DNA of 24,769 nucleotides from Verrucomicrobiaceae bacterium (GCA_044340175.1 JBIIUD010000001.1:1-24769), one strand, 5' to 3'; positions 3,768 to 24,730 are shown, numbered from the stretch's first letter. Made by a program: numbers and translations. The notes: a model not told the origin generated them from the sequence alone.

Positions 3768-4253
3768 ATGCCACACAGAAATACTGGAGGGCGTCCACCC
3801 AAATACAACGAACCGAGTCGGCCCGTAACCGTGACACTGCCGGAGAGTACCTTGCGCCAATTGGAGCAAATCAGCCCCGATAGGGGACTAGCCATTGTTA
3901 AACTTACCAACCATCTGAAGGCAGACAAGGTCAGTTCTTCACGAGTGGAAATCTTGGATGTCGGGCGCAAAAGCGGTCTCATCATTGTGGGCCCTTGCCC
4001 AGTACTATCAAAAATACCTTTCCTTCACCTTGTTGAAGTCGCTCCCACACGCTTTCTCCTGGCGGTTGACAGCGAGCAGGACTTTGCCGCACTGGAGTTG
4101 GCCATTCAGGATCTTTTGGATTCCAAAGAGCCCAATCCACAAGATGAGCAGGAAATCCTTGACGAATTGCTTTCAACCATCCGTCATCTGCGACGCAATC
4201 GCCAAACGAGCCATGCTGAGATTCTTCTGGTGAACTTGCAAAACTCACCTTAG
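3768..4253 (+). CDS. Hypothetical protein, putative ribbon-helix-helix-like DNA-binding protein (paralog A)
   Basis: 161-aa ATG ORF beginning GGRPPK..SRPVTVTLPESTLRQL..DRGLAIV. Gapless alignment to ORF 4470-5000 with 62 of 157 identities (hand count) supports a real gene. Confidence 0.8.
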   Translation: MPHRNTGGRPPKYNEPSRPVTVTLPESTLRQLEQISPDRGLAIVKLTNHLKADKVSSSRVEILDVGRKSGLIIVGPCPVLSKIPFLHLVEVAPTRFLLAVDSEQDFAALELAIQDLLDSKEPNPQDEQEILDELLSTIRHLRRNRQTSHAEILLVNLQNSP

Positions 4254-4469
4254 GCCACGGACACCCTCCTTAGCCATTCTCCGATGCGCACTGACACGGC
4301 AAACGGCCAACTGTCGTCAGTTTCGTGTGTTCTTGCAAATGAGGCAGAGGTTAACGAATCACAATCATAAAACCAAATTTATTCTCATTTCTATGGAGAT
4401 AGTTTGCCGCCGAAAGATTGCTTCGCTCTGTTCCTCGCAAGTAATCATGATCTCGCTTCACCTCAGTCC

Positions 4470-5000
4470 ATGCCCAATCAAACCAGAGTCGGCAGACCCG
4501 CCAAATTTGAAACTCCTAGGCGGGCTGTGACCATCACCCTGCCTGAGTCCACATTGAAACTGCTGCAGAGCTTGGATGAGGATCGCAGCATCGCCATCGT
4601 TCGTGCTGTCGATACCGCTCAATCACAGCATTCCGATCGACTGCCTATCGAGATTGTCCCCGTGGGACAACATAACGGTCTGATCCTCACCGTTTTTGTT
4701 TCCGCGTATTTCAGAATTCCCTTTGTAAAACTCGTCGAAGTGGAACCGGGTCGCAATTTCATTGCTTTGGATCCAGGCCATAGCATCGCTGACCTAGAAA
4801 TCGCCATCACTGATCTTGTCAACGAAGGGGAAGAACTCACGGAACGGGACAGGTTACTGATGGAAACCCTGCTAGCAATGCTTCGAAAATTAAGAAAGTC
4901 GGACAAAGTACGCATGGCTGAAATTCTCTTGGTCAATTTGGGGTCAATGCCACCGGAACAAGCCCTCCGGTCAAATACTGAGAATAATCTTATCTGTTAA
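4470..5000 (+). CDS. Hypothetical protein, putative ribbon-helix-helix-like DNA-binding protein (paralog B)
   Basis: Start placed at the ATG at 4470 (MPNQTRVGRPAK) because it aligns exactly with the start of paralog A; the track gives 4404. Shares TLPESTL, IPF..LVEV.P.R and AEILLVNL with paralog A. Confidence 0.8.
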   Translation: MPNQTRVGRPAKFETPRRAVTITLPESTLKLLQSLDEDRSIAIVRAVDTAQSQHSDRLPIEIVPVGQHNGLILTVFVSAYFRIPFVKLVEVEPGRNFIALDPGHSIADLEIAITDLVNEGEELTERDRLLMETLLAMLRKLRKSDKVRMAEILLVNLGSMPPEQALRSNTENNLIC

Positions 5001-5065
5001 TTAATATAAACCATTGATTTCGCATCATTTCCCCGTAAGAATGGCTGGTCGCACCGCCTCCTTTG

Positions 5066-7144
5066 ATGCATATCCACTCGGATTCAAATTCGAAACTGCA
5101 CCCATCTTCGGCTTGGCGTCGCGCTGCGGCAGGCTTTCTCGCTCTCCCCTTAGCCACCCAAATCTTGTGGGGAATCTTGTTCGTCAGCGGCCTCTTCCTC
5201 CTTGAGTATTTTGGTGACTTGAAGCGTCCAAGTGACACTTCATGGTTCAAGGACATCGCCGCAAACCAAAGGCATAGCTTCAAGACCTTTCTCAACGTGG
5301 GACTGTGGTATGGCACGTTGATTCATCTACTGCTGATCAGTTGTCTGCTTGGAACCGTGCGTTGGTGGGGGAAAGGCCAACCAGCCAAGTATGTGATCAC
5401 GCTTGGCCGATCCAGTCAGCGCTATGACAAGGCGTTCTGGATACTCCTGATGATTCTATGCATCAGCGCAGGCATGCTGCGATGGCCGAAAATGAGTTTG
5501 TCTTATTGGGGAGATGAAGGCTGGGCTATCGCGCCCTATGTTTACGGCAAGCATGTGCCAGTTGACCCTGCAGAACCCCAAGGGGCGTTGGTTCACAAGC
5601 CGGTTTCCTGGACAAACACCGCATTCGACGACCGCACCTGTGGCAATCATTACCTCTTTAGCTTGGCACAAAGGGCCACTTTGACGACTTGGCGCTGGTT
5701 CAGGAATCTACCGCCTGACGCTTTCGACGAAACCATCTCACGACTACCCCCTTTCGCTGCCGGACTGGCTTCCTTGGTTGCCTTAGCAGGAATGTTACGC
5801 TGGCTTGGGCGACCGATCGCTGGCCTAGCCGCAACTGCCCTGATGGCCCTCCACCCCTGGCACCTGAGATACTCAACCGAGGCTCGTGGGTACACCATGA
5901 TGCTGTTTTTCCTCATCGTTTGTTGTTGGTTAGGATTCATCGCATTGCGATCAGGCAAGTGGCGTTGGTGGCTCTCCTTTGGGCTGGCCGAGTTTTTGTG
6001 CATGTACTCTTGGAAAGGCGTGATGTACCCACTGGCAGCAGCCAACATAGTGCTTCTCATGTGGATCTGTTGGGGCAAACTCTGTCAAACTCAAATGATG
6101 TCCACCGAGAGTCGCGCCGGAACGGCATGGCGCTGGCTGGTAGCCAACGTCATCGCCGCAGGCCTTTTCATCAACCTTGTTTATCCCTGTCTTCTCCAGG
6201 TTAAAGATGCTAAAGAACACTTGATCCAGCTTTCAGGTCGCCCCATGGGCCGGCTATGGTTAGACAACTCCATCAGCGGTATCTTCACGGGCATGCCTTG
6301 GCACATTGAGGAAAAGGAAAACCCGACCGAAGTGGTTCTCAGTCAACAACTCAAAATCCGCCCGTTGCAAACAAGCGCTGAGCTAGTTGCCCTCGCTTCG
6401 CTTCTCGCTTTAGGTCTGATCGACATGGCAAGACGTCAACCGTGGCTCGCTACAATCAATTTGTCTTTCTATATCTCAGCCATTTTTGGCGCTTGGTTTT
6501 TCCGTTATGTCATTGATGCAGAATGGATATCTTGGTACTTTCTCTTTCTTATCTTTCCCCTTTCCTTTCTGGCCAGTTTAGGAGTTGATTCGCTTTTCCA
6601 GAAGGCGAAATCGTTCTGGAATTCGCGCGCAAACTCGCATGCCATCCGTCACCGTTCTTGTTCCTTAATGGCCATCGTTTGCGCGGTGCTTGGATTCGCA
6701 CTTCCTGCCTCATTCGCGACCCTGACACACCCAGCATCAGCACTCATGTGTCATCAAGCTTACGAGGACCATCGCGGTGCTTTTCAAATCACCCGAGGTC
6801 GCCATGAGACGCTCCATGATAAAACACCTTCCAAGGTCTGGACTGTTTACCTTTGGCGCTACATCACTCTGTATGACCCCCGCGGAGATACCCATGTCAG
6901 GAGAGCAAACGAACTGCACAAGCTCATCGCCGAAGTAGAACGGCAAAAGGGGGAGCTCTACGTCATTGTGGGCCACCGCCAGTTGGCTCGCTCGATTAGC
7001 ACTGGCATCATGAACATGGTCGAGCACTCGGGCAAATTCCACCATTTGCAAACCTTCTGGGCACCCGAGGAACTCCATTGTCTGCACTGTTACAAGTATC
7101 AGCCGCAGGCTCCGTTGCGAGCGACGCCACCATCGGAACAGTGA
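5066..7144 (+). CDS. GT-C fold membrane glycosyltransferase (PMT/GT39/ArnT-like)
   Basis: Polytopic hydrophobic protein with SYWGDE (acidic pair after a TM helix), RLP and HPWHLRYSTEARGY motifs. ATG at 5066; the track starts at the TTG at 5063. Confidence 0.85.
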   Translation: MHIHSDSNSKLHPSSAWRRAAAGFLALPLATQILWGILFVSGLFLLEYFGDLKRPSDTSWFKDIAANQRHSFKTFLNVGLWYGTLIHLLLISCLLGTVRWWGKGQPAKYVITLGRSSQRYDKAFWILLMILCISAGMLRWPKMSLSYWGDEGWAIAPYVYGKHVPVDPAEPQGALVHKPVSWTNTAFDDRTCGNHYLFSLAQRATLTTWRWFRNLPPDAFDETISRLPPFAAGLASLVALAGMLRWLGRPIAGLAATALMALHPWHLRYSTEARGYTMMLFFLIVCCWLGFIALRSGKWRWWLSFGLAEFLCMYSWKGVMYPLAAANIVLLMWICWGKLCQTQMMSTESRAGTAWRWLVANVIAAGLFINLVYPCLLQVKDAKEHLIQLSGRPMGRLWLDNSISGIFTGMPWHIEEKENPTEVVLSQQLKIRPLQTSAELVALASLLALGLIDMARRQPWLATINLSFYISAIFGAWFFRYVIDAEWISWYFLFLIFPLSFLASLGVDSLFQKAKSFWNSRANSHAIRHRSCSLMAIVCAVLGFALPASFATLTHPASALMCHQAYEDHRGAFQITRGRHETLHDKTPSKVWTVYLWRYITLYDPRGDTHVRRANELHKLIAEVERQKGELYVIVGHRQLARSISTGIMNMVEHSGKFHHLQTFWAPEELHCLHCYKYQPQAPLRATPPSEQ

Positions 7145-7257
7145 TTTTCAGTGAGTTAAGAACGACCTATTGTATAGGCTATCTTGGCAAGTTAAGGCAT
7201 CGCCTAGCCTCGCTGATATTCGCATCATAGAACCTCCGCTCGATTCTTGAATGAAAG

Positions 7258-8142
7258 TCATTGCCCCTTCCCAATCAGGGTGGTGAACTCTGCGTAGTTT
7301 CTGATGTAATCCTCGGGATCGTAGTATTCAGATGCAAACACCATCAAAGTGCTATCGCTCGTGTGTTTGTACTCGGTGGCCCAAATCATTGGAGGCACGT
7401 AGATCCCAAGGGTGGGCCGATCCAGAAGGATTTCTTCCCGCTGTTGCCCATCATCAACGACGACCGCACATGACCCCCGCACACAAATCAAGAATTGCTC
7501 ACACTCACGGTGAGCGTGCTCACCCCGGATGCGCGCATTAGGAACATCAAAGGTGATGAAATAGCGGAGAGGCCGAAAAGGGATGGTTTTCTCAAATTCA
7601 CCCACCGTCAGATTCCCCCGAGGATCACTGATGAATGGAAGCTCAAAAAGGCGTACCCCACGCACGCGACAAAGCATGCCCAGTCCTTGAACGGCGGGCG
7701 TTGCTTGGGAGGCCGTCTTGACAGCCACACTTGCACCCCTAAACCCAACCACCTTGGCTGGATTCCCCGCGACGATCGCGTATGGCTGGACTGAATTCAG
7801 CACGACGGAACCAGGCTCCACCAACGCTTGCTCACCAACGGTCACTCCTGCGGCCAAAGTCGCGTTTCCTCCGATTTGGCTCCCCCGGCAAATCAGGGTA
7901 ACTGGCGCGCCGTTCGTGTTTCGAGGGCGCACGAATACCACATTCGCGCCGATCTCAACTCCGTCCTCAATCGCCACATTTTCATGCAAGATGACACCTC
8001 CTTCGATGTGTACGTCAGCACCCACCACCGCGCCTTTGTGAACAAAGCAATGACTTCCAAACGAGCAGCCAAAACCCACCTGCGCTTCCGGCGAGATTTC
8101 AACGAACGGACCTTTCTGAATCTGAAGTACTTGCGTGGTCAT
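7258..8142 (-). CDS. WxcM-like bifunctional protein: N-terminal hexapeptide (LbH) acetyltransferase-like domain plus C-terminal FdtA/QdtA cupin sugar 3,4-ketoisomerase
   Basis: Hexapeptide repeats ending in AIVAGNPAKV, followed by DPRGNL..RGEHAH..EQ (two-His ketoisomerase motif)..VFASEYYDPEDYIR. Confidence 0.9.
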   Translation of the reverse strand: MTTQVLQIQKGPFVEISPEAQVGFGCSFGSHCFVHKGAVVGADVHIEGGVILHENVAIEDGVEIGANVVFVRPRNTNGAPVTLICRGSQIGGNATLAAGVTVGEQALVEPGSVVLNSVQPYAIVAGNPAKVVGFRGASVAVKTASQATPAVQGLGMLCRVRGVRLFELPFISDPRGNLTVGEFEKTIPFRPLRYFITFDVPNARIRGEHAHRECEQFLICVRGSCAVVVDDGQQREEILLDRPTLGIYVPPMIWATEYKHTSDSTLMVFASEYYDPEDYIRNYAEFTTLIGKGQ

Positions 8143-8152
8143 CTCAGGCTTA

Positions 8153-9106
8153 TCATCTGGTTGGAATGTGCTGCAGCCGGTGCCGGATCAATGCTTGAGG
8201 CTTCCCGGATACAGTCATGTAAGCACGTCCGAGGTACTCACCTATGACCCCCAGCATGATCAGTTGCGCCCCTGAAAAGACGAACACAGCCGCCATCAAG
8301 GAAGCCCAACCGGGAGCGCGAGTCCCAAGAATCAGCAGTTCCAATATGACCAGGAACAGAACCATGAGGCCTGTCACACACAGCGCTCCTCCAAGCATGC
8401 TTGAGACTCTCAGCGGCATGATGCTGAAATTGAAAAACATATTCATCCAGAGCCTCACGAGTTTTTGGAAGGTGTAGCCACTCGTGCCTGTGTGACGCTC
8501 CTCATGAAGCACGAGTCGTGTTTCAATTCTTTGGGTCGCACCCAGGATCAACCCATCAATGTAGGGATAAGGGCCGGAATAACGAGTGACATCCTCAACC
8601 AATCCTCGGCGCAACGCCCGGAAACTGCACAGGTACAACTTTTTTGGCTTACCAAGTAGCCAACTCGCCACCTGATTCGTCATGGAACTGCCCAGATTGC
8701 GAAACCAATGGTGCTTCTTTTCCTCATACCGCCCATACACCACATCTGCCTTCGATTGCTTCAGATGTTCAACCAGCTTTAAGGCCTCGCTGACCGGATT
8801 CTGCAAATCATCGTCAAGATTGACCACGAACTCACCACTGGCCTGACGATAGCCCTCCAGGACAGCGGCATGTTCGCCAAAATTCCGTGCTAGATCGACA
8901 AACACAACGGGGATCGGCATGTTCTTGATGAGTTCCGGAACCCTCTCACCGGTGCCATCGGGACTGCCGTCGTTGACCAGGACTAACTCAAAGCTGAGGT
9001 CTGTTTTGAGATCTTTGAAGGCCTGCAATAAGGGCTCCAATGCCTGGCCTGTATTGTATAGCGGCACTACAAAACTCACTTCCGGAGAGACGGCATTTTC
9101 AGACAT
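8153..9106 (-). CDS. GT2 polyprenol-phosphate glycosyltransferase (ArnC/GtrB/DPM-like)
   Basis: VVPLYN, LVNDGSPDGT, RNFGEHAA and NLDDDLQNP motifs plus two C-terminal TM helices. The ATG at 9106 overlaps the upstream stop by 8 nt. Confidence 0.92.
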   Translation of the reverse strand: MSENAVSPEVSFVVPLYNTGQALEPLLQAFKDLKTDLSFELVLVNDGSPDGTGERVPELIKNMPIPVVFVDLARNFGEHAAVLEGYRQASGEFVVNLDDDLQNPVSEALKLVEHLKQSKADVVYGRYEEKKHHWFRNLGSSMTNQVASWLLGKPKKLYLCSFRALRRGLVEDVTRYSGPYPYIDGLILGATQRIETRLVLHEERHTGTSGYTFQKLVRLWMNMFFNFSIMPLRVSSMLGGALCVTGLMVLFLVILELLILGTRAPGWASLMAAVFVFSGAQLIMLGVIGEYLGRAYMTVSGKPQALIRHRLQHIPTR

Positions 9107-10277
9107 GATCAGCCTCCAGAGTGTTCTGATTCGTTGCCGTAAGATCGAGCTGTTTCGGCTCAAAAGCCAACAGAGCAGACGTCACTTTTTCGAGACTGTC
9201 GGTCTTCAAATAAGGATGCAAAGGTAATGTGAGGACCTCTCTTGCCAGGAGCTCTGTTGTAGGAAGCGCTGGACTTTGAGCCGCATAAGCCGCGTAGCCT
9301 GCCTGCCTATGAATGGGCTGTGGATAATGAATGGCTACCGGCACGCCCAACTCAGTCATGTGAGCATGCAACTCATCCCGCTGGTCACTGCGCACCACAA
9401 AGAGATGCCATGCATGCAGACAATGCGGCTTCACCTCAGGCAACCGCACCGGATACCCCGCATGGATTTGGCCACGGTACCAGTCAGCGAGACTTCGGCG
9501 CTTCTCGAGTTGCTGTGGCAGAGTACGTAACTTCACCCGCAAAATGGCGGCTTGAAGCTCGTCCAGGCGGCTATTGACACCCTCATAGTCACTGATGTAC
9601 CGCCCAACCCAGCCGTATTGACGCAGAATGTGAATGCGCTCCGCGAGCTCTTTGTCAGAGGTCACCACAGCTCCCCCATCACCCACCGCTCCCAAGTTTT
9701 TCGTGGGGTAAAAACTGAAGGCTGCGGCCCGCGCAATCGATCCCACTTTCCGCCCTTGATACTCGGCACCATGTCCCTGCGCGCAATCCTCCAAGAGCGT
9801 GATGCCATGCCGAGCACAGATCTTTTGAAGGGCCTCCATGTCACATGGGTGACCATAAAGATGCACCGCGAGCACCGCACGCACATTGGCACCGTGATCC
9901 GAGCTGAGCAGCCCTTCCAAAGCGGCTGGACAGAGGGTCTGAGTCACCGGTTCGACATCGACAAAGATGGGCTCCGCTCCTGCACGAACAATGGCCGCGG
10001 CACTGGCGACGGCCGTATGCGAAGGCACCACTACCCGATGCCCTTGTCCTATCTCCAAGGCCCGCAGCATCAGCTCGATGGCATCGGTTCCATTTGCCAC
10101 GCCGATCGCGTGATCCACACCCACGAATGCGGCGAATTCTTCCTCAAAAGCGGCGACTTCCTGGCCCAAGATGTAAACGCCCCTCCGCAGCACTCCATTC
10201 ACAGCCTCATCAAGCTCTGTCTGATGAGCCAAATAGTCGTCGAGGGGAAAAGCGGTGATTCGGTTCATGTTATTCAC
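9099..10277 (-). CDS. DegT/DnrJ/EryC1/StrS PLP-dependent sugar aminotransferase (FdtB/QdtB-like by context)
   Basis: AVHLYG, EDCAQGHGA, FSFYPTKNLGAVGDGG (PLP Lys) and NSRLDELQAAIL. The GTG start shares GTGA with the upstream stop; an alternative ATG is at 10268. Confidence 0.94.
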   Translation of the reverse strand: MNNMNRITAFPLDDYLAHQTELDEAVNGVLRRGVYILGQEVAAFEEEFAAFVGVDHAIGVANGTDAIELMLRALEIGQGHRVVVPSHTAVASAAAIVRAGAEPIFVDVEPVTQTLCPAALEGLLSSDHGANVRAVLAVHLYGHPCDMEALQKICARHGITLLEDCAQGHGAEYQGRKVGSIARAAAFSFYPTKNLGAVGDGGAVVTSDKELAERIHILRQYGWVGRYISDYEGVNSRLDELQAAILRVKLRTLPQQLEKRRSLADWYRGQIHAGYPVRLPEVKPHCLHAWHLFVVRSDQRDELHAHMTELGVPVAIHYPQPIHRQAGYAAYAAQSPALPTTELLAREVLTLPLHPYLKTDSLEKVTSALLAFEPKQLDLTATNQNTLEADHV

Positions 10278-12157
10278 GGGGGGGTGGCAACGTCTAGCTT
10301 GGGTAAGATCACGGACTTGGTCCCAGACAGCGGTGTTACAAGACCCTTCAACGGATCAAACGCGTAGGCACGGATCATCACTTCACCATTAGGCAGTTCA
10401 CGCCGCTTGAGACCCAATGGCGCAGCTACCATGAAAGTTCTCTCCTCTCCACTCAACGGCTCATAGACCCATCCAATGCGGTCCTCGTGCACGCGCGCCC
10501 CCTCCTTCTCCGCTTTGTTGTGCATGACCGTAAAGCGCGAAGCTATACCCAACCATTTTTCCTCACCCCCGGGAGTTTGATAAGAAAGCGCTACTGCTTT
10601 AACCGGACCAAGCGTTTGCGCATTGAAAGCCCAGCCGATCACTCGCACCCCTCCTTTGACTGCCTCCGCTCCGGTCAATTGTCCCTTAACGCCTTCCTTT
10701 GAAGCTTGTGGAACATCGCTCACATTTTCTGAAGCGATCGTTTTGACATGCAACAAACCCTCCAATTCCAACCTATCGAGCAATCCGACGTTTTGGTGTG
10801 TGTTCCACGGCCGCGTCGCCGCTAAAAAGACAGGTTCAGGCGCTACTTTTCGAAGCGCTACGGCCGCCTCCATAGAGTAACCGTGACGCTTCATACGCTC
10901 AACATCCATCCACCCCTGTGCTGTTCCAAACGCGGCGCCAATTCCCATTAGAACTAGAGACAGGATGGTGACACGCCGCCAACGGCGGCCTTGTGTTAGC
11001 GTTAACAAGCCGAAAAGCCCGAGGAAAAACCACCCCGTGAAGGCAGGGTAGCGTGAGTGGAAAGGACCATGTCCTCCTTCTCCCATCCGCGCCAGGGTGA
11101 CGGCCATGGTATTGCCCAGGCCGAGCAAGACAAGCATGATCCATGGGGCCACTTCGTTTTCGCTGAGGCTTGAACGCCTGCGCCAGAGATGCAGCAGGCT
11201 AGCTGCCAAAACCGCTAATGCGGCGACTGTCACGCCTACCGAAACCCAATCTTGGACAGCCACACGTTCCGAACGCGCCGCCGTGACATAGATATCTGAT
11301 AGAGGTGCTCCCAGAACTTTGGCAAAAAATGAGGCGGCAGTGAGAGGTTCATTGATCAGAGTGGTGAACAACCCTGAATCGCCGATCCCTTTAGACTTAG
11401 GCCACCCCTTCGCATAGACCCACCCCGCATAGACAGAACTGGCCAGCCAAGTCATGACAGCCACGATACCGGCTCGAGGCCATTTTTTCTGAGCCACTTT
11501 CCAAAGTAAGAGAGCGCCTCCTAAAACGACCGCCAACCACCCATTCGCAAAAGAAAAGACGGCGATCCAGGATAGCAGAATCGCAAACATCACTCTAATA
11601 CTGAATAACCCGTTTTGGTTCAGCACCCAAAGCATAAGCAGCGTTGCAGCCACTGGCATCATGTAGCATAGCTGAATGCCCCATGACCAATTCATCCACT
11701 GCGCAGGCGACAACATCAGAAAAACTCCAAGCAGGCCTGCCACCACTTCCGCATAACTGAACTTTTGGCGCTTTGTCCACCAATCCACTGTGACCGCCAC
11801 AGCGACTCCGCCGAGCCCCACACACAGCAGAGACTCAAGCACTGGATTCCAGCTCCACTGCTTGATCACTAGTGCATGAACCCATTGCACCGCGTCATGT
11901 CGGCTGTCATTGCCAACGGACCTTAAAAAACTCCAAAAACCCTCACCATCAATCCACTTGAAGTAGGGTTGAATCACCAACCCCCAGTCATCCATCCTCG
12001 GCACATAGCACGTCGCCGTCACAGCGATGACCACTGGTGGAATCAAGCCTACCAATAGGCCTAGCCAGAGCAGCCAAGGTTTTGCACGTTGCTTGTTGTT
12101 TTCGCTTATTATCTCTTCCAAGTCTTGAGTTTCTACGCAAGAACCAAGGAGCTGCAA
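10274..12157 (-). CDS. Polytopic membrane protein, probable GT-C-type transferase with a C-terminal extracytoplasmic beta domain
   Basis: About 10 or more hydrophobic segments; PRMDDW acidic pair after TM1; LSPAQWMNWSWGIQ, SFANG and HSRY motifs; soluble tail of about 190 aa. The start is non-ATG and uncertain. Confidence 0.7.
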   Translation of the reverse strand: MQLLGSCVETQDLEEIISENNKQRAKPWLLWLGLLVGLIPPVVIAVTATCYVPRMDDWGLVIQPYFKWIDGEGFWSFLRSVGNDSRHDAVQWVHALVIKQWSWNPVLESLLCVGLGGVAVAVTVDWWTKRQKFSYAEVVAGLLGVFLMLSPAQWMNWSWGIQLCYMMPVAATLLMLWVLNQNGLFSIRVMFAILLSWIAVFSFANGWLAVVLGGALLLWKVAQKKWPRAGIVAVMTWLASSVYAGWVYAKGWPKSKGIGDSGLFTTLINEPLTAASFFAKVLGAPLSDIYVTAARSERVAVQDWVSVGVTVAALAVLAASLLHLWRRRSSLSENEVAPWIMLVLLGLGNTMAVTLARMGEGGHGPFHSRYPAFTGWFFLGLFGLLTLTQGRRWRRVTILSLVLMGIGAAFGTAQGWMDVERMKRHGYSMEAAVALRKVAPEPVFLAATRPWNTHQNVGLLDRLELEGLLHVKTIASENVSDVPQASKEGVKGQLTGAEAVKGGVRVIGWAFNAQTLGPVKAVALSYQTPGGEEKWLGIASRFTVMHNKAEKEGARVHEDRIGWVYEPLSGEERTFMVAAPLGLKRRELPNGEVMIRAYAFDPLKGLVTPLSGTKSVILPKLDVATPP

Positions 12158-12204
12158 GCCTTTTTATCGATTCGCCAGGCGTCGCCCCAGCACGTCAAGC
12201 GCAC

Positions 12205-14097
12205 TCACTTCGATTGTGCCCGGTAAATCCAGTAATGGTTCTCAGATTCAATCCCGTCAAAGCGTGCCACCTCAGCGAACCGTGCGGTGTCTTCAATCAT
12301 CGGGAAGCCCGTCGGCAGCATTGATCGATTGAAATGATAATGCCCGAGCACCAGATACACAGGCGTTCCCTCTGTCTTTGCATTCGCAAGGGCCTGCTGG
12401 ATCTGAGCCGCGTCATCCACGGGTAGCAATCTCGGGACGAACACCGCCAACGCCTCGCGCCCATGGCCATAGCCCAGCACCTTTGCCTTTTCACCGCCAT
12501 GAATTTCCAACCATGTCGCCACATCACGAATGGGTTCAATCGGATTTGTCAAAAGCACCTCAGATCCGCGCACGGCGGTCATCAACAGTGCTATCCACAC
12601 CCCTGCCTGAACCCCTTTCATCCAACGTGTTTTTAAACCCCACCCTAATGCCAAGCCGATAACCACCACCGGCACCAGCGCAATGGCAAAGCGACTGTAG
12701 TAGTAGGTGCCGACAACCCAGGTGGAAAACGCAAAAGCCATGCCCGAAAACAGCAGCCCGGCGATCAACCACGGAGTGGAAGTGTCCCTTCGGCAGGCCT
12801 GCACAACATTCCACAGCAGCAAGGTCACCGTAAGCGCGATCAAGACAATGCCACTCATGGGTGACCCCCAGAGCGTCTCCAACTGCGGTAATCCAACCCC
12901 TAAGTCAGTGCCTGCGGTGGGTTCCCGCCAGCGCACTCCGGTCAGCACACGCGAGACTGTGTCCTTGAGAATGACCGCATCCAGAGTGTGCCCCTGTCCT
13001 TCCTGCCCGGCCCAATGGCGAGCCTGCAAGACACAAGGCAAAAACAGTTGGATGAAGAGTAGCCCGGAACAAAGATGCGCCACGATCAATCGCAGGCTTA
13101 CGGCGGCTCGATCAGAAGCATTGCTCTGAGATTTAACCAACAAGACGCCAAGAAACAAGGTCATCACCGCCACATCCAGGAGACCATGCGGAAAGGCCCA
13201 AAGCCAGAGGCACTGATTGATGGCCAACCAAATCCAGCCCACCTCGTCCCTTCCCGCCAAACGCAGTAATCGAGTGCAGGCCAGCAAGGAAGATAACACC
13301 AGTGGCATCACCAAAGCGTAGCCCCGTGCATCCACACCGTAGCGGATCGCCATGGGATGCACCGCTAGCAGCAGCGCTCCCGCCAGTGCCGCCACCGGTC
13401 CAGCACCCCAGGAAAGCAGAAGCCAGCCCGTCAGCAGGATTGCTCCCGCTGAGAGCGCCAAGGCAGGCAAGCGCGCCACCAAATCACTGAACTCATGCCT
13501 TGGCGCACCTGTCAGCCACCGCCACAGATCAAGACTCGTCTTTTGCAGCAGAGACAGGGGCACATGGTTGGTCGGCTTCTGATAATAGAAGGCGCAACGT
13601 TTCCATGACGTCGGACTGAACTTGAGTGCCTCAGGGTCCTCCGCTTTTTCATCCGCTTTCCAACTCCCATGCACGCATTGACGGATCGACCATAACTCAT
13701 CCCACCACAAACTCTTGGATGCCAGTGGAACACGCAGAGCTGTGCCGAGCACCACGATTCCTAGCAGACCCACAATCACTCCTTTGCTTAACTTAGCCCT
13801 GGTCCGCACTGCGCCCGAGGCGGGTTCCGCTTTCCATGGTCGCAACCACCAGCGCGCTGTCAGCATCAGGATCAACAGCAGCACGGAATTGAGGGCCGCC
13901 GCTGCTTGGATGCCAACATTCACATCCAGCTCCCAAGGTATGGTGGCATCGGCATTCGAAGCCATGAGCGTCTGGATCTTGGCCCAAGCATCCCGAGCTG
14001 AAGGCCCCCGCAGCACTATGGCTAGAGAGGCAAGCCAGGCCAAAGCTAGCAGTGCCTGTATCCGCCGCACCGACGACTGAAAGATTGCGGCGATCAT
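12205..14097 (-). CDS. GT-C fold membrane glycosyltransferase (PMT/GT39/ArnT-like), paralog of 5066-7144
   Basis: SLWWDE, RLP and HPMAIRYGVDARGY motifs. The ATG at 14097 lies 1 nt after the corA stop; the track start is 14130. Confidence 0.85.
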   Translation of the reverse strand: MIAAIFQSSVRRIQALLALAWLASLAIVLRGPSARDAWAKIQTLMASNADATIPWELDVNVGIQAAAALNSVLLLILMLTARWWLRPWKAEPASGAVRTRAKLSKGVIVGLLGIVVLGTALRVPLASKSLWWDELWSIRQCVHGSWKADEKAEDPEALKFSPTSWKRCAFYYQKPTNHVPLSLLQKTSLDLWRWLTGAPRHEFSDLVARLPALALSAGAILLTGWLLLSWGAGPVAALAGALLLAVHPMAIRYGVDARGYALVMPLVLSSLLACTRLLRLAGRDEVGWIWLAINQCLWLWAFPHGLLDVAVMTLFLGVLLVKSQSNASDRAAVSLRLIVAHLCSGLLFIQLFLPCVLQARHWAGQEGQGHTLDAVILKDTVSRVLTGVRWREPTAGTDLGVGLPQLETLWGSPMSGIVLIALTVTLLLWNVVQACRRDTSTPWLIAGLLFSGMAFAFSTWVVGTYYYSRFAIALVPVVVIGLALGWGLKTRWMKGVQAGVWIALLMTAVRGSEVLLTNPIEPIRDVATWLEIHGGEKAKVLGYGHGREALAVFVPRLLPVDDAAQIQQALANAKTEGTPVYLVLGHYHFNRSMLPTGFPMIEDTARFAEVARFDGIESENHYWIYRAQSK

Positions 14098-14098
14098 T

Positions 14099-15076
14099 TT
14101 ACAGCAGTTTTTTGCGCTTAAAGTACACAATCGGAGCCGCTGCGGAGAGCACTAACAAACCTAACACAATGGGATAGGCCATCGGATGACGCAGCTCCGG
14201 CATGTGCTCAAAGTTCATCCCGTAAATGCTAGCGATCAATGTCGGCGGCAGAAAGAGCACGCTCGCGATGGTGAAAATTTTGATGATCTGGTTCTGTTGG
14301 ATGTTGATCAGCCCTAGCGTGGACTCCAGCAGGAAGGTCATCTCTTGTTGTTGCTGGTTGGTGTAGTCATCCAGGGATTTCACGTCGCGCATCACGCTCC
14401 GGAATTGCCCAGCCAAAGCACCACGCATCCACGTCGCTGCATTGTTGAGGAAATACTGCAGCATCCGGTTGATGCTCACGAGACTTTCCCGCAGGTTCGC
14501 CACCAGCGCACTGCGCCGCCCCAGTAACCGCACCACCTCACCCAGGTCTTTTTCGGTGGCCGCATTCGCCCGACCGGTATCGAGCGCGAAGACTTCCCGC
14601 CCGATCTTCTTCAGATCAGCCTCCACCGTTTGCAATGCATCGGCGATCCTTGCCACGATCAACTCCATCATCAGCAGAAACACCGCGTCACTCGAGATCG
14701 GCGTCGCGCACTGTCGCCTGACCTGATCGGCGAACACTCGAAAAGCATGGGGATCCGCATAACGCACAGTCGTGAGACAATCGGGTGCCACAACGAAAGT
14801 GATCGCTGTCGTATCAGGATCTGACGTCTCCAGGCCCACCGGAATCCACGCCGTCATGTAGAGCGCGTCTTTCTCGCTGTAGAGTCGGCTGGACTCCTCG
14901 ATCTCCTGCATCTCCTCACGCGTCGGCAGTTGGTACTCCAGCCATTTTTCCGCTTCCAACTCCTCAGGGCGTGAGGGATTCAGCAGGTCCAGGTAAACGA
15001 GATTGTCCGGAAAGGGGAGAGACTTCTCGTCCTGCCAGTCAATGAGAGTGCCTTGTTGAGTGATGAGTCGAACCAT
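14099..15076 (-). CDS. corA: Magnesium/cobalt transporter CorA
   Basis: 325 aa, large soluble domain, two C-terminal TM helices and the signature PPTLIASIYGMNF..MPEL. Confidence 0.96.
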   Translation of the reverse strand: MVRLITQQGTLIDWQDEKSLPFPDNLVYLDLLNPSRPEELEAEKWLEYQLPTREEMQEIEESSRLYSEKDALYMTAWIPVGLETSDPDTTAITFVVAPDCLTTVRYADPHAFRVFADQVRRQCATPISSDAVFLLMMELIVARIADALQTVEADLKKIGREVFALDTGRANAATEKDLGEVVRLLGRRSALVANLRESLVSINRMLQYFLNNAATWMRGALAGQFRSVMRDVKSLDDYTNQQQQEMTFLLESTLGLINIQQNQIIKIFTIASVLFLPPTLIASIYGMNFEHMPELRHPMAYPIVLGLLVLSAAAPIVYFKRKKLL

Positions 15077-15198
15077 GCGTGCAAAGAAGGGGGAGGGTGG
15101 GAATCTAGTGCCGCACCAGACTCACCGCCACGGAAAAGGCAGCGAGAAAAGCCTGGGATCTGGACATACAAATATCTGATTGCAGCGGGCTTAGCAAA

Positions 15199-15227
15199 TT
15201 GAATAAAGCCACCAAACTCACTATAAT
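15199..15227 (+). promoter_or_regulatory. Sigma70-type promoter
   Basis: TTGAAT (15199-15204), 17-nt spacer, TATAAT (15222-15227), about 60 nt upstream of the ATG at 15290. Confidence 0.6.
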
Positions 15228-15289
15228 TAAGGTTCTGGACGTTATGGAGAACAGCACCAGAAAGTGTGGATATAGAAATCTGCACGACC

Positions 15290-16156
15290 ATGAAGAATTC
15301 CTTTTTGTTCCTGGCTCTCCTCGTTTCAGCAGGTGCTGTTGCCAACGCCGCCACCCCCAGCCGAGTGTCTGAATTTACGACTCTGACAGGTCGCACCTAC
15401 CGTCAGTGCCGTATCAGTCAGGTGCATCCCGATGGGGTTTCTTTTTTCCACTCCAAGGGCGCTGCCAAGGTGCTCTACGCGGACATGTCTGACGACTGGA
15501 AAAAGAAACTGGGCCACAGCGTCGAGCGTGAGCAGGAGCATCAAAAGCAGGCCTCCATGAAAAAGTTCCTGCAACAGGAAAACGAGGCCAAAGCTCGGCA
15601 GCAATGGGCCGCCAATCAGCAGGAGCAGGCAGAAAGGCAACTGCGCATTCTGGAGCGCGCCGCCCTGTTCAGGGAGCGCCAAGGTCTGATTTACCAGCAG
15701 CAGCTTGCCGCTCTGTATGGTGCCCAGGTACCCGCCTTCGGTCCCGCCCCTGCTGTGGGCTGGCCTGGCACTTACTTTGGACCGTTGAATGCTGTGCATG
15801 GCCCCAGTTTTGGGGGACGCCCCTGGTGTGATCGAGGCAGTATCAGCCTCGCCTCCATCGGTGGGGGAAGCGGAGGGTACCTCAGCATCCGGAGCAACAA
15901 CTGTGTCTGGATCGGTGGCGGTCATGCCTGGAGAAACCCCGCGGTATGGCAGAGCCCCACCCTTGGTTCCTACATTCCCGGGAAGTTTGCGCCGTTTGGT
16001 TCGGCCGGACCCTTTGGCGGCGTTTACTTGGGCGGTGCACGCGCCCTTGGACAGGTCGGTCTTGGCAGTGTCGCTTGGGGGTTCGTGCCGCCTGCACCCG
16101 CCGCCGCTGCCGTCCCAAGCTTCCGAGGCAGTGTGTCCATTCCCGCTGCCAAATAG
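15290..16156 (+). CDS. Secreted hypothetical protein: signal peptide, small beta-rich domain, coiled coil, Gly/Pro/aromatic-rich tail
   Basis: MKNSFLFLALLVSAGAVANA Sec-type signal at the ATG at 15290, E/Q/K/R-rich helical middle, and an upstream promoter match. Confidence 0.8.
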   Translation: MKNSFLFLALLVSAGAVANAATPSRVSEFTTLTGRTYRQCRISQVHPDGVSFFHSKGAAKVLYADMSDDWKKKLGHSVEREQEHQKQASMKKFLQQENEAKARQQWAANQQEQAERQLRILERAALFRERQGLIYQQQLAALYGAQVPAFGPAPAVGWPGTYFGPLNAVHGPSFGGRPWCDRGSISLASIGGGSGGYLSIRSNNCVWIGGGHAWRNPAVWQSPTLGSYIPGKFAPFGSAGPFGGVYLGGARALGQVGLGSVAWGFVPPAPAAAAVPSFRGSVSIPAAK

Positions 16157-16246: not shown

Positions 16247-17521
16247 ATGATAAAGCGCCTGCTCCTGCTCCTCCCTGTCTCCTTCAGCCTCATGACTCCC
16301 GATTCTGCCCCTGCTCGCGAAGGTGTGAACGAAGACGAGGCCCATGTCGGTAGCTACACGTTGCCAGACCCATTGCACCCTGCCGGCAGTCAGCCCATCC
16401 CATCTCAGGCCGATTGGGAAGCCAGAGGTCGTGCCGCCACCCAGGCTTTGTTCGAGCAGCATGTCTATGGCAAAACGCCCAGCGGACCTTGGAAACTGGT
16501 GACGGAAACCCTCAGCATCAAAAAGGACGCGCTCGGTGGCAAGGCCACGCGGTATCTGATTCAGATTCGTCTGGCCGATGTGCCTGCCTGGCCGGGCATG
16601 CAAATGATGGTTTACAGCCCGAACGCTGCCAACCGCCCTGTGCCAGCTTTTCTCTGCCTCAGCTTCGGCGGCAATCACGCTGCCTCTGCTGAGTCGGATG
16701 TCCCGCTCTCCGACCGCTGGCAGCGCTCGTCGAAAGACAAAGGCGTCGTGGACAATCGCGCAACCGAAGCTGCCCGCGGCACCGAGAGCGGACGCTTCCC
16801 CTTTGAACTTGCCATCAGCCGCGGCTACGCCATCGCCACCGCCTATTGTGGCGACATCGAGCCCGATCATGCGGAAGGCTGGAAAGACGGGGTACGGGGT
16901 GCCTTAGGCGTTAAAGGCACACCGGGTGAGTGGGGCTGCATCGGCGCTTGGGCCTGGGGCCTGTCCCGCATGTTGGACGCCTTGGAAACCGTGCCGACCA
17001 TCGATACCACACGCTGCGCCACCGTTGGGCACTCGCGTCTTGGCAAGGCCTCGCTGTGGGCTGGCGCTCAGGATACCCGCTTTGCCATGGTCATCTCCAA
17101 CAACTCCGGTGAAGGAGGTGCTGCTCTCAAGTACCGTCACTTTGGGGAAACGCCGGCCATTATCACCCAAGCCTTCCCGCACTGGTTCACCGCCACCTAC
17201 ACCAGCTACGGCGCCGATCCGAAAACCTGCCCGGTGGATCAGCACCAGCTCATCGCCCTCGTCGCCCCGCGTCCCGCCTACGTCGCCAGCGCCACAGAAG
17301 ATCTTTGGGCAGATCCGAAAGGCGAATTCCTGGCCGCCAAAAACGCCGAGCCGGTCTATGCGCTGTTTGGCAAGCCAGGACTCACCGTGGAGGCTCAGCC
17401 CGCTGCCGACACCCCTGTCGGCGACCACATCGGTTACCACCTCCGCACGGGTAAGCACGACATCGACGCCTACGACTGGACGCAGTACTTCAACTTCGCA
17501 GATCGCCACTACGCCAAGTGA
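16247..17521 (+). CDS. Carbohydrate esterase family 15 (4-O-methyl-glucuronoyl methylesterase-like), secreted
   Basis: Signal peptide; GAWAWG, GHSRLGK (catalytic Ser), SGEGGA, FPHWF, DQHQLIALVAPRP, EDLWADP and GKHD..YDW motifs. Confidence 0.92.
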   Translation: MIKRLLLLLPVSFSLMTPDSAPAREGVNEDEAHVGSYTLPDPLHPAGSQPIPSQADWEARGRAATQALFEQHVYGKTPSGPWKLVTETLSIKKDALGGKATRYLIQIRLADVPAWPGMQMMVYSPNAANRPVPAFLCLSFGGNHAASAESDVPLSDRWQRSSKDKGVVDNRATEAARGTESGRFPFELAISRGYAIATAYCGDIEPDHAEGWKDGVRGALGVKGTPGEWGCIGAWAWGLSRMLDALETVPTIDTTRCATVGHSRLGKASLWAGAQDTRFAMVISNNSGEGGAALKYRHFGETPAIITQAFPHWFTATYTSYGADPKTCPVDQHQLIALVAPRPAYVASATEDLWADPKGEFLAAKNAEPVYALFGKPGLTVEAQPAADTPVGDHIGYHLRTGKHDIDAYDWTQYFNFADRHYAK

Positions 17522-22958: not shown

Positions 22959-23744
22959 ATGCGCATCTGGGACCTCCACTGTCATCTCACCGGCCTCCCC
23001 GGCCTCACCCCCGAAGAGCGGGCCACCCACCTCATTCGCTACGCGGACCGCATGGGCATCGAACGCCTCTGCGTTTACATGGGCCTGCGCTTCCTGCAAA
23101 ACCCCACCGCAGAGCAGCTCGTCCAACAGAACAATGATGTCCTGCGCGCCCGCGCCGCCTTCCCCGACCGCCTCTTTGGCTTTGTTTATTTGAGTGGCGA
23201 GCACCTTGAAACCAGCCGCGCCGAGCTCGAGCGCTGCGTCGCCAACGGCCCCATGGTCGGCGTCAAACTCTGGGTCGCTAGTCGCTGCAATGACCCAAGC
23301 TTGCACCCCCTGATCGCTCGCGCCGCCGAGTTAAAAGCCGTCATCTTCCAGCACACCTGGATCAAAACCGGCGGCAACTACCCCGGCGAATCCACCCCAG
23401 ATGACCTCGTCGCCCTCGCCCAACATTTCCCCGACGTCCCTCTCATCTGCGGCCACACCGGCGGCAACTGGCACCTCGGCCTACGAGCCATCCAACACCA
23501 ACCGAATCTCTATGCCGACCTCGCCGGCAGCGATCCCACCGCCGGCTTCACCGAAGCCGCCGTCGCCGCCCTCGGCCCCGACCGCGTCCTCTACGGCAGC
23601 GATGCCCCCGGCCGCAGCTTCTCCAGCCAGCTCGCCAAAGTCCACGGCGCCGACCTCCCACCCGCCATCAAACAAAAGATCTTCCACACCAACCTCCACC
23701 GCCTCCTCACCCCCATCCTCCAAGCCAAAGGCATCAGCCCCTAG
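22959..23744 (+). CDS. Amidohydrolase_2 family metal-dependent hydrolase
   Basis: DLHCH, GVKL, QHTW, CGHTGG and YGSDAP: a full set of putative metal ligands. Confidence 0.9.
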   Translation: MRIWDLHCHLTGLPGLTPEERATHLIRYADRMGIERLCVYMGLRFLQNPTAEQLVQQNNDVLRARAAFPDRLFGFVYLSGEHLETSRAELERCVANGPMVGVKLWVASRCNDPSLHPLIARAAELKAVIFQHTWIKTGGNYPGESTPDDLVALAQHFPDVPLICGHTGGNWHLGLRAIQHQPNLYADLAGSDPTAGFTEAAVAALGPDRVLYGSDAPGRSFSSQLAKVHGADLPPAIKQKIFHTNLHRLLTPILQAKGISP

Positions 23745-23772
23745 CATCCATCAAGCCCCAAGCTAGCCGACC

Positions 23773-23875
23773 CACTGACCTCACTGACCTCACTGACCTC
23801 ACTGACCTCACTGACCTCACTGACCACTGACCACTGACCACTGATTACTGATTACTCCACTGATCACTGATTACC
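23773..23875 (+). repeat. Compound short tandem repeat: (CACTGACCT)x5 followed by about 7 heptamers YACTGAY
   Basis: Five perfect 9-mers at 23773-23817, three CACTGAC at 23818-23838, then CACTGAT, TACTGAT, TACTC, CACTGAT, CACTGAT and TACC. Confidence 0.95.
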
Positions 23876-23887
23876 AAAAACACCCCC

Positions 23888-24730
23888 ATGCCCACCCGCC
23901 GCTCCTTTCTCACCCAAGCCGCAGGTCTCACCACCGCCCCCCTGATCGCCCTCGGTAGCACCCCGCCCTCCGCCACCGATGTCACCTTCACCGACGTCAA
24001 CATCCACCTGCACCGCTGGCCCCACCACCGCCTGCCGCACGACGATTCACCCGCTCTTGCCGAGCACCTGCAGATCAACGGCGTCACCCAGGCCTGGGTC
24101 GGCAGCTACGACGCCCTGCTTCAACAGGATCTCACCTCCGTCAACGCTCGTCTCGCCGCCGACTGCGCCAACACCGCCCCCGACCTTTTCCTTCCCATCG
24201 GCACCCTCAGTCCGCTCCATCCCCGCTGGCAGGACGACCTCAAACGCTGTCAGCAAACCCATGGCATGAAAGCCCTGCGCCTCTACCCTGGCTTTCATCA
24301 CTACACCCTCGCTGACCCCGCCTTCCGCCAACTCGTCGAAGCCGCCGCCGCGGCCAAGCTCCCTCTTCAAATCGTCTCTCAACTCGAAGATGCCCGCACC
24401 CAGCACACCGCCCTACAAACCCCCGCCGTCGATCTCAAACCGCTCCCTGCTCTTCTCAAAGACATCCCCGAAGCCCGCATCATGGTCCTCAACGCCAGTG
24501 CCGCCATGATTCACACGGCCCTTCAACCCGCTGAAAATCTCTGGATCGACATCGCCAAACTCGAAGGCTGCGGCGTCCTCGAAACACTCCTGCAAACCTG
24601 GCCAGCCCAGCAACTCGCCTTCGGTTCCAATGCCCCCTTCTTCTACTGGCAGGCCGCCAAGCTCAAACTTCAAGAGTCTGCTCTGACCCCAGCCCAGATC
24701 CACACCCTGACCCGCCCGTCTTTTCTGTGA
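23888..24730 (+). CDS. Amidohydrolase_2-like protein with a Tat signal and degenerate metal site
   Basis: TRRSFL Tat motif; DVNIH, LRLYPGFHHY and FGSNAP. TIM-barrel amidohydrolase pattern with substituted ligands. Confidence 0.82.
   Translation: MPTRRSFLTQAAGLTTAPLIALGSTPPSATDVTFTDVNIHLHRWPHHRLPHDDSPALAEHLQINGVTQAWVGSYDALLQQDLTSVNARLAADCANTAPDLFLPIGTLSPLHPRWQDDLKRCQQTHGMKALRLYPGFHHYTLADPAFRQLVEAAAAAKLPLQIVSQLEDARTQHTALQTPAVDLKPLPALLKDIPEARIMVLNASAAMIHTALQPAENLWIDIAKLEGCGVLETLLQTWPAQQLAFGSNAPFFYWQAAKLKLQESALTPAQIHTLTRPSFL

Follow-up and report, generated by a model that had tools for sequence, protein, structure and literature searches.

The contig JBIIUD010000001.1 (positions 1-24769; assembly GCA_044340175.1) from a Verrucomicrobiaceae bacterium was analyzed over its whole length of 24.8 kb, referred to below as the window. 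It belongs to a metagenome-assembled genome that is 71% complete, and among named organisms Verrucomicrobiaceae such as Roseimicrobium and Verrucomicrobium are closest to it. Seven genes, here called A, B, C, D, E, F and CorA, lie within 5066-15076. Four of them, in the order E-D-C-B, form one presence-or-absence unit between two older genes, CorA-F and A, and probably constitute a portable module that serves extracytoplasmic glycosylation. Three polytopic proteins of the region (A, E and F) are assigned to the GT-C glycosyltransferases, and only E travels with the sugar genes. The envelope glycans of Verrucomicrobiota are almost unstudied, and the module offers a four-gene handle on one modification that varies between the species of a genus.

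The genes are listed here by position in the window; the starts given for D and E may be off by a few codons.

5066-7144, plus strand: A, a polytopic flanking gene convergent with B, GT-C paralog of F (assigned from that paralogy)
7258-8142, minus strand: B, a WxcM/FdtD-like fusion of an N-terminal LbH acyltransferase and a C-terminal cupin 3,4-ketoisomerase (Pfam, match to 4mzu)
8153-9106, minus strand: C, a polyprenyl-phosphate GT2 with a GT-A domain and two C-terminal membrane helices (Glycos_transf_2, matches to ArnC and GtrB)
9099-10277, minus strand: D, a pyridoxal phosphate-dependent sugar 3-aminotransferase of the FdtB/QdtB/WxcK type (DegT, matches to DesV and QdtB)
10274-12157, minus strand: E, a polytopic protein of a rare family, the dedicated GT-C of the module (modelled fold, linkage)
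12205-14097, minus strand: F, a polytopic flanking gene, GT-C of a multi-copy Verrucomicrobiaceae family (modelled fold)
14099-15076, minus strand: CorA, a CorA-family Mg2+/Co2+ channel (Pfam CorA, 164.9 bits)

Linkage of the sugar genes with E

A preliminary description of the region had reported six genes (A to F), the motifs WGDE, WWDE, MDDW and RGEHAH, and a tight run with spacings of +47, -4, -8 and +10 nucleotides (nt). All of these were found to be present, and the spacings were reproduced from the gene coordinates, with -8 between D and C and +10 between C and B. The stop codon of CorA is 1 nt from the ATG of F; the tight run thus reaches CorA. A promoter and terminator scan of 4900-15500 gave nothing decisive in the A-B interval or upstream of CorA.

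The order E-D-C-B was the same in L015/L154, L164, L165, L166 and, in another genus, L046, which together represent every E homolog on a long enough contig, and the order D-C-B was seen in at least seven loci at 56-78% identity. The close joining of the sugar genes to an ArnC/GtrB-type GT2 and a GT-C, as first described for the window, was retained in every related locus examined. The module was found in at least three genomic contexts and its flanks vary. Locus L165 has a sulfatase gene upstream, an RHH-like gene downstream and neither F nor A, and in genome G123, which contains L046, the module and the F ortholog are on different contigs. In G123 a gene for a class I S-adenosylmethionine-dependent methyltransferase (L046:11432-12202, minus strand; 256 residues; Methyltransf_11, 74 bits) is inserted to give E-D-methyltransferase-C-B, which may mean that the sugar of this genome is N- or O-methylated.

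The distribution of the flanking genes is different. Of the family's 15 genera, 12 have orthologs of F, each genome carrying 2-6 paralogs, and CorA adjoins F in all nine related loci examined. The CorA-F pair stands without sugar genes nearby in L147 (Roseimicrobium gellanilyticum), L149, L151, L153, L156 and L157; CorA is the conserved partner of F and not of the sugar module. In G404, a genome of the same genus that is 93% complete, CorA-F and a convergent A ortholog are separated by a 477-nt spacer with no cassette between them (locus L153), and a search of this genome for B, C and E found none of the three, D not having been searched genome-wide. Neither B nor E was found in another genome of the genus, G431 (90% complete), where the GT2 search returned only a weak partial match; again D was not included in the genome-wide searches. 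Two further genomes of the genus, G426 and G435, carry B and E, and C was found in G426, the only one of the two that was searched for it; G416 is also counted among the cassette-bearing genomes of the genus. Because CorA-F and A are present in G404, where B, C and E were not found, F and A must serve a function for which the module is not required. No remnant of E, D, C or B was detected in the G404 spacer, so that insertion of the module cannot be told from its deletion.

Two side observations concern these flanks. The G404 spacer (L153:9381-10000) contains a short open reading frame of about 85 residues that resembles none of the module genes. The arrangement of CorA followed by an F-family GT-C is itself kept across Verrucomicrobiaceae genera (window 12205-15076; L147, L149, L151, L153 and L155-L157).

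It had been proposed that three GT-Cs deliver the sugar, which would mean that one lipid-linked 3-amino sugar donor serves A, E and F on three acceptors. A conserved acidic motif and a modelled GT-C fold are found in E and F, and A shares both as a paralog of F. Furthermore, A, E and F surround the sugar genes in the window and in L015/L154, and a system with one donor and several GT-Cs is known, namely Rhizobium RgtE with RgtA-D. However, the family-wide CorA-F pairs without nearby sugar genes, the adjacent CorA-F and A of the cassette-free G404, the E-D-C-B of L165 without F and A, and the many copies of the F/A family per genome all argue against a shared donor, and we regard it as improbable. 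The co-occurrence in relatives that the proposal implied was observed for E-D-C-B, which are kept together, and not for F and A, which are independent neighbours.

An RHH-like paralog pair is located upstream of A (window 3768-4253 and 4404-5000) and has homologs near the module in other loci. One (L165:7726-8196, 68% identity) directly follows B in the locus that is without F and A, and another is at L015:17421-17882 (57% identity). They may encode a regulator that accompanies the module. Elsewhere in the window, a secreted-looking protein with a glucuronyl-esterase domain (GCE_fung, 103 bits; 16247-17521) is unrelated to the module, and 22959-24730 is occupied by an adjacent pair of Amidohydro_2 genes, one with a strong match (99.6 bits) and one with a weak match (31.8 bits).

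Folds of the membrane proteins

The structure of E was modelled from 13 sequences (pLDDT 78.9, pTM 0.81), and the model gave VIA Z scores of 16.1 with Pmt4, 13.4 with STT3 and 13.0 with ArnT. The top 16 structure matches were all GT-C proteins (Z 16.1-10.6), and the next match, at Z 7.5, came from an immunoglobulin-like (Ig-like) domain. In AFDB the best match and cluster was an RgtA/B/C/D-like protein (TM 0.67/0.74). The membrane domain of E extends over residues ~20-465 and is followed by the C-terminal Ig-like beta-sandwich at 489-620. In the model this domain is similar to the accessory domains with which other polysaccharide-modifying GT-Cs bind glycans; the fold identifies no acceptor. 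The family is rare, with only 12 homologs of E among 5.8 billion proteins.

The model of F, built with 32 homologs, was of higher quality (pLDDT 91.7), and its VIA Z scores were 25.1 with ALG12, 24.8 with STT3, 24.1 with Pmt4 and 22.6 with ArnT. It matched 37 GT-C entries, including PglB, at Z 25.1-11.5, and the next match was at 7.7. The GT-C core of F begins near residue 113, behind an extra two-helix hairpin. A and F are paralogs, with 25% identity over the full length (E 6e-36). The models thus show a GT-C fold for E and F, while the same fold is assigned to A solely through its paralogy to F.

The acidic pairs that had been pointed out in an early loop of each protein are more than chance occurrences. 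The MDDW motif of E occupies residues 55-58, and among the 13 E-family sequences D56 is invariant and D57 nearly so (kept in at least 90%). The WWDE motif of F is at residues 142-145, and W142, D144, E145 and W147 are invariant across 32 F/A-family sequences; WGDE of A is at residues 149-152, numbered from the TTG at 5063. Each motif lies directly behind a membrane helix (residues 5-48 in E and 116-139 in F), which places the acidic residues in the first extracytoplasmic loop, behind the first helix of the core.

Comparisons of sequence were much less informative. Neither E nor F matched a GT-C family of Pfam or NCBIfam; the sole Pfam hit of E was a sub-threshold DUF998, and there was no match to Pfam GtrII. 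PF13231 is present in a few distant homologs of F, and A falls just below the cut-off for PMT_2 (24.5 bits vs. 26.1 bits). Solved structures searched with the sequences of A, E and F gave no useful match, and E was without any sequence match in the PDB. When the F profile was aligned with E. coli ArnT by hhalign, the probability was 0.3%, which indicates no relation, and comparison of the E-family and F-family profiles likewise gave no relation, so that E is unrelated in sequence to A and F. Because these profile comparisons found nothing, the GT-C assignment rests on fold and not on sequence. The expectation of a GT-C fold in all three membrane proteins was thus borne out by models for E and F and by paralogy for A, with no curated sequence-family threshold reached.

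The proposed donor sugar and its lipid carrier

B had been described as a ketoisomerase. The FdtA cupin with its RGEHAH motif is indeed present, but B is not a plain isomerase, the cupin being fused to an LbH acyltransferase (FdtA, PF05523, 174.7 bits; Hexapep, 53 bits). The protein aligned over its full length with the WxcM-like protein 4mzu (residues 15-287, E 4.1e-74). The RGEHAH of B (residues 206-211) aligned with that of 4mzu, the cupin His pair is kept, and R206, H209 and H211 are invariant across nine orthologs; judged from these alignments, the 3,4-ketoisomerase half is intact. D scored 368.8 bits with Pfam DegT, its best solved matches include the 3-aminotransferases DesV (1e-94) and QdtB (1.6e-89), and its lysine motif, YPTKN, is at residue 190. 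B matched FdtA (2pa7, 2e-31) as well as QdtA (4zu7, 1e-21), and the predicted product of B and D is either Fuc3N or Qui3N, between which sequence cannot discriminate. Elsewhere in the genome there are two copies of RmlA and part of an RmlB gene, truncated where its contig ends, so dTDP-4-keto-6-deoxyglucose is likely to be available.

In the proposed pathway, RmlA and RmlB would supply dTDP-4-keto-6-deoxyglucose, the cupin half of B would isomerise it to the 3-keto sugar, and D would aminate the latter to dTDP-3-amino-3,6-dideoxyhexose. C, a membrane GT2 of the ArnC/GtrB type, would then move the sugar onto undecaprenyl phosphate, a putative flippase would carry the lipid-linked sugar across the membrane, and E, in which a conserved Asp pair follows the first membrane helix and the Ig-like domain is periplasmic, would put it on an envelope acceptor, probably a polysaccharide or lipopolysaccharide. 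The sugar-nucleotide steps are proposed with high confidence. Loading of the 3-amino-dideoxy sugar onto undecaprenyl phosphate by C and its transfer by E, for which linkage and analogy are the basis, are proposed with moderate confidence.

Fusions like B belong to a wider cassette. A WxcM-like fusion was found in at least 566 species genomes, and the best 80 fusion loci (L065-L144, Xanthomonas sequences not among them) were surveyed. The D-C-B arrangement occurred in 41 of the 80, the fusion being separated by about 100 nt from a full-length membrane GT2 and by about 1 kb from the aminotransferase. These cassettes were present in the Pseudomonas syringae group, Zoogloea, Janthinobacterium, Lysobacter, Delftia, Legionella drozanskii, Dactylosporangium, Streptosporangium, Nonomuraea, Gemmataceae, Acidobacteriota and Kiritimatiellia. 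The phyla represented include Pseudomonadota, Actinomycetota, Acidobacteriota, Planctomycetota, Myxococcota and Gemmatimonadota. The small open reading frame directly after the fusion was GtrA in all eight cases tested. Most cassettes are flanked by large polytopic proteins; in a Pfam scan, six of 27 such neighbours matched GtrII, YfhO or PMT_2, and the 21 that matched no GT-C family are candidates for new ones. A Xanthomonas-type aminotransferase-GT2-WxcM-GtrA cassette is thus spread over many phyla, and most of its adjacent polytopic proteins are without annotation. The cassette implies a lipid-linked 3-acetamido sugar, which to our knowledge has never been shown biochemically, and no paper demonstrating a lipid-linked Fuc3NAc intermediate in this way was found in the literature.

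C has a Glycos_transf_2 domain (86.9 bits) and matched ArnC (9hwj) over residues 9-309 of 317 (E 1.8e-44) and GtrB (5ekp) over its full length (E 2.8e-39). Both alignments include the DxD region and both C-terminal membrane helices, the two hydrophobic segments being at 260-307 of the 336-residue frame. Against the NCBIfam ArnC model C scored 178.8 bits, under the 529-bit cut-off, and is not an ArnC equivalog. A tree of 59 membrane GT2s was calculated; it contains long branches, and its groups received their names only once a first tree had been inspected. One clade (100/100) on the GtrB side held the cassette GT2s from every phylum, other Verrucomicrobiota included, whereas C and four Verrucomicrobiaceae orthologs formed a separate clade that grouped with E. 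coli ArnC (100/98). Uniting the C clade with the cassette clade was rejected by the approximately unbiased (AU) test (p 3.5e-5). Since the tree and the AU test set the C clade apart, the GT2 in the middle slot is not the usual cassette one.

This position of C is compatible with a different division of labour, in which C loads an unrelated sugar for E, for example from a UDP-sugar, and the product of B and D goes to a cytoplasmic glycosyltransferase whose gene is elsewhere. In its favour are the grouping of C with ArnC and other GT2s instead of the cassette GT2s, and the classical use of FdtA and FdtB products by cytoplasmic glycosyltransferases. However, C overlaps D and abuts B, the D-C-B order recurs among the loci, B, C and E are jointly present or absent within the genus (with the genome-wide searches excluding D, as stated above), and no cytoplasmic glycosyltransferase is found in or beside the module. 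Such a division of labour is considered very unlikely.

In this lineage, the LbH half of B shows signs of degeneration. The motif GPNATFTND has become GANVVFVR---PRNT, MVGAGAVV has become LVEPGSVV, and the N-terminus is shortened. The FxN(D) element, whose asparagine we take to be catalytic, is gone in five of five Verrucomicrobiaceae orthologs, and the replacements are all different (FVR-PRNT, FVRPGAG, TLVGSATGGSS, FADSRLG). Between B and an ortholog, identity was 67% in the LbH half vs. 88% in the cupin, and in another comparison 43% vs. 70-78%; ordinary fusions showed the reverse or near equality (LbH/cupin 79/71, 66/55 and 67/66). Elsewhere FxN is kept in 69 of 80 fusions, and in seven of nine other lineages without it a second, free-standing LbH gene stands beside the fusion, suggesting that loss of FxN is loss of activity. 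The loci concerned (L101, L109, L115, L134, L135, L141 and L144) constitute a recurrent case of domain decay with replacement by a separate gene. No free-standing LbH gene accompanies the present module. A free-standing replacement LbH acetyltransferase may be encoded elsewhere in the carrier genomes, where only weak LbH matches (34-46 bits) were seen. Because the LbH half looks degenerate, the sugar may indeed be a free 3-amino sugar, as had been assumed, and the balance is tipped slightly toward a sugar that is not N-acetylated by B.

Several points weigh against the proposed pathway. C is not an ortholog of the cassette GT2s and lies on the ArnC side, therefore its sugar cannot be derived by orthology, and we infer its donor from linkage and analogy. 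The module carries no flippase gene: no GtrA was found in the window, in the modules of L015 and L164-L166, or in a search of the 71%-complete genome for PF04138. The LbH frame is still open, with 67% identity to its ortholog, and some activity may be kept. Furthermore, the cationic-sugar pathways known to us, those of 4-amino-4-deoxyarabinose (Ara4N), galactosamine and glucosamine, load an N-acylated sugar and deacylate it later, and there is no deacylase here.

These last points bear on whether the module is an ordinary Wxc-type system, in which an active LbH half would give undecaprenyl-phosphate-Fuc3NAc or -Qui3NAc as the donor and E would decorate a polysaccharide with neutral side branches of the acetamido sugar, as in Xanthomonas. 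All polyprenyl-phosphate amino-sugar synthases known to us use an N-acylated donor. In addition, B matches the bifunctional 4mzu over its full length with the LbH half in an open, moderately conserved frame between genus-level orthologs, and the gene order is identical to wxcK-L-M (PMC12573098). Against this, FxN(D) was lost in every Verrucomicrobiaceae ortholog with a different replacement each time, evolution is faster in the LbH half than in the cupin, opposite to what normal fusions show, and the adjacent LbH gene of most other FxN-less lineages is missing. An ordinary Wxc-type system is thus possible, although on balance unlikely.

The proposed pathway can also be taken further, to an un-acylated, positively charged 3-amino-3,6-dideoxyhexose that is loaded directly by the ArnC-clade C and placed by E on lipopolysaccharide or another anionic envelope polymer. 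We regard this version as quite doubtful. If true, it would be an Arn-like charge modification made from dTDP-sugar chemistry, without the N-acyl protection and deprotection of all amino-sugar lipid-carrier pathways known to us. The Verrucomicrobiaceae variant, with its swapped GT2, its eroded acetyltransferase half and no GtrA found, is in any case a natural test of whether N-acylation is needed to make a polyprenyl-phosphate amino-sugar donor.

Comparison with known systems

In three-component periplasmic glycosylation, which is well described (PMC11127046), a membrane GT2 loads a single sugar on polyprenyl phosphate, and the sugar is then transferred by a GT-C on the periplasmic side. The Gtr system of Shigella, Salmonella and E. 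coli prophages (GtrA, GtrB, Gtr*) is similar in that C matches GtrB 5ekp over its full length. However, the sugar here would be a dTDP-derived amino-dideoxyhexose made by genes of the module itself, no GtrA was found, and E is without Pfam GtrII. The FdtD protein of Shewanella denitrificans (4mzu, deposited as a WxcM-like protein) has the same two-domain architecture as B and the same cupin His pair, whereas its LbH domain keeps GPNVTFTND where B has GANVVFVR and a three-residue gap.

In Rhizobium, RgtE and RgtA-D provide a case of one polyprenyl-phosphate sugar donor, with galacturonic acid as the sugar, that serves several GT-Cs. The best structural relatives of E are called RgtA/B/C/D-like in AFDB; here, unlike in Rhizobium, one GT-C only co-varies with the donor genes. 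The pentofuranose system of Citrobacter youngae, in which ORF12 (GT136) is a GT-C with an extra periplasmic domain of the sugar-binding type beside its own lipid-donor synthase (PMC11127046), is comparable to E with its C-terminal beta-sandwich domain. The donor in that system is derived from phosphoribosyl pyrophosphate and not from a dTDP-sugar, the flippase is of the MATE type, and there is no sequence relation.

The Arn system (arnB-arnC-arnA-arnD-arnT-arnE-arnF), which places Ara4N on lipid A, has an aminotransferase, a GT2 and a fusion of an N-acyltransferase with a keto-sugar enzyme in the same order (E. coli locus) as the module. C groups with E. coli ArnC, and in both a GT-C acts, or would act, last. 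However, the fused domains are not homologous, being LbH and cupin here and formyltransferase and SDR in Arn, D is a 3-aminotransferase and not ArnB, and C is below the ArnC cut-off. The window contains no formyltransferase, ArnD deformylase or small SMR-type (ArnE/F) gene.

The closest precedent is wxc region 3 of Xanthomonas campestris and X. hortorum. The gene table of X. hortorum gives wxcK as a transaminase, wxcL as a glycosyltransferase and wxcM as a bifunctional acetyltransferase/isomerase, followed by wxcN and wxcO (PMC12573098). In wxcK and wxcN mutants the rhamnan O-antigen is without its Fuc3NAc side branches (PMC4878081), and in a review the Xanthomonas side chain is read as the product of a distinct mechanism (PMC8042644). 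Both loci have the order aminotransferase, membrane GT2, fusion and then membrane proteins, and in both a dTDP-3-amino-3,6-dideoxyhexose pathway is tied, or would be tied, to a step outside the cytoplasm. The features specific to the present lineage are the ArnC-side GT2, outside the cassette (WxcL-like) clade as inferred from 41 cassette loci without Xanthomonas sequences, the apparently degenerate acetyltransferase half, the absence of a detected GtrA-type WxcN, and E, a GT-C of a different, rare family with an Ig-like domain. The preliminary description knew of no characterised system with this combination of genes. The order wxcK-L-M(-N-O) and the spread of the cassette across phyla correct that view: the combination is already precedented, and the module is a variant of a widespread Xanthomonas-type system, not a new category.

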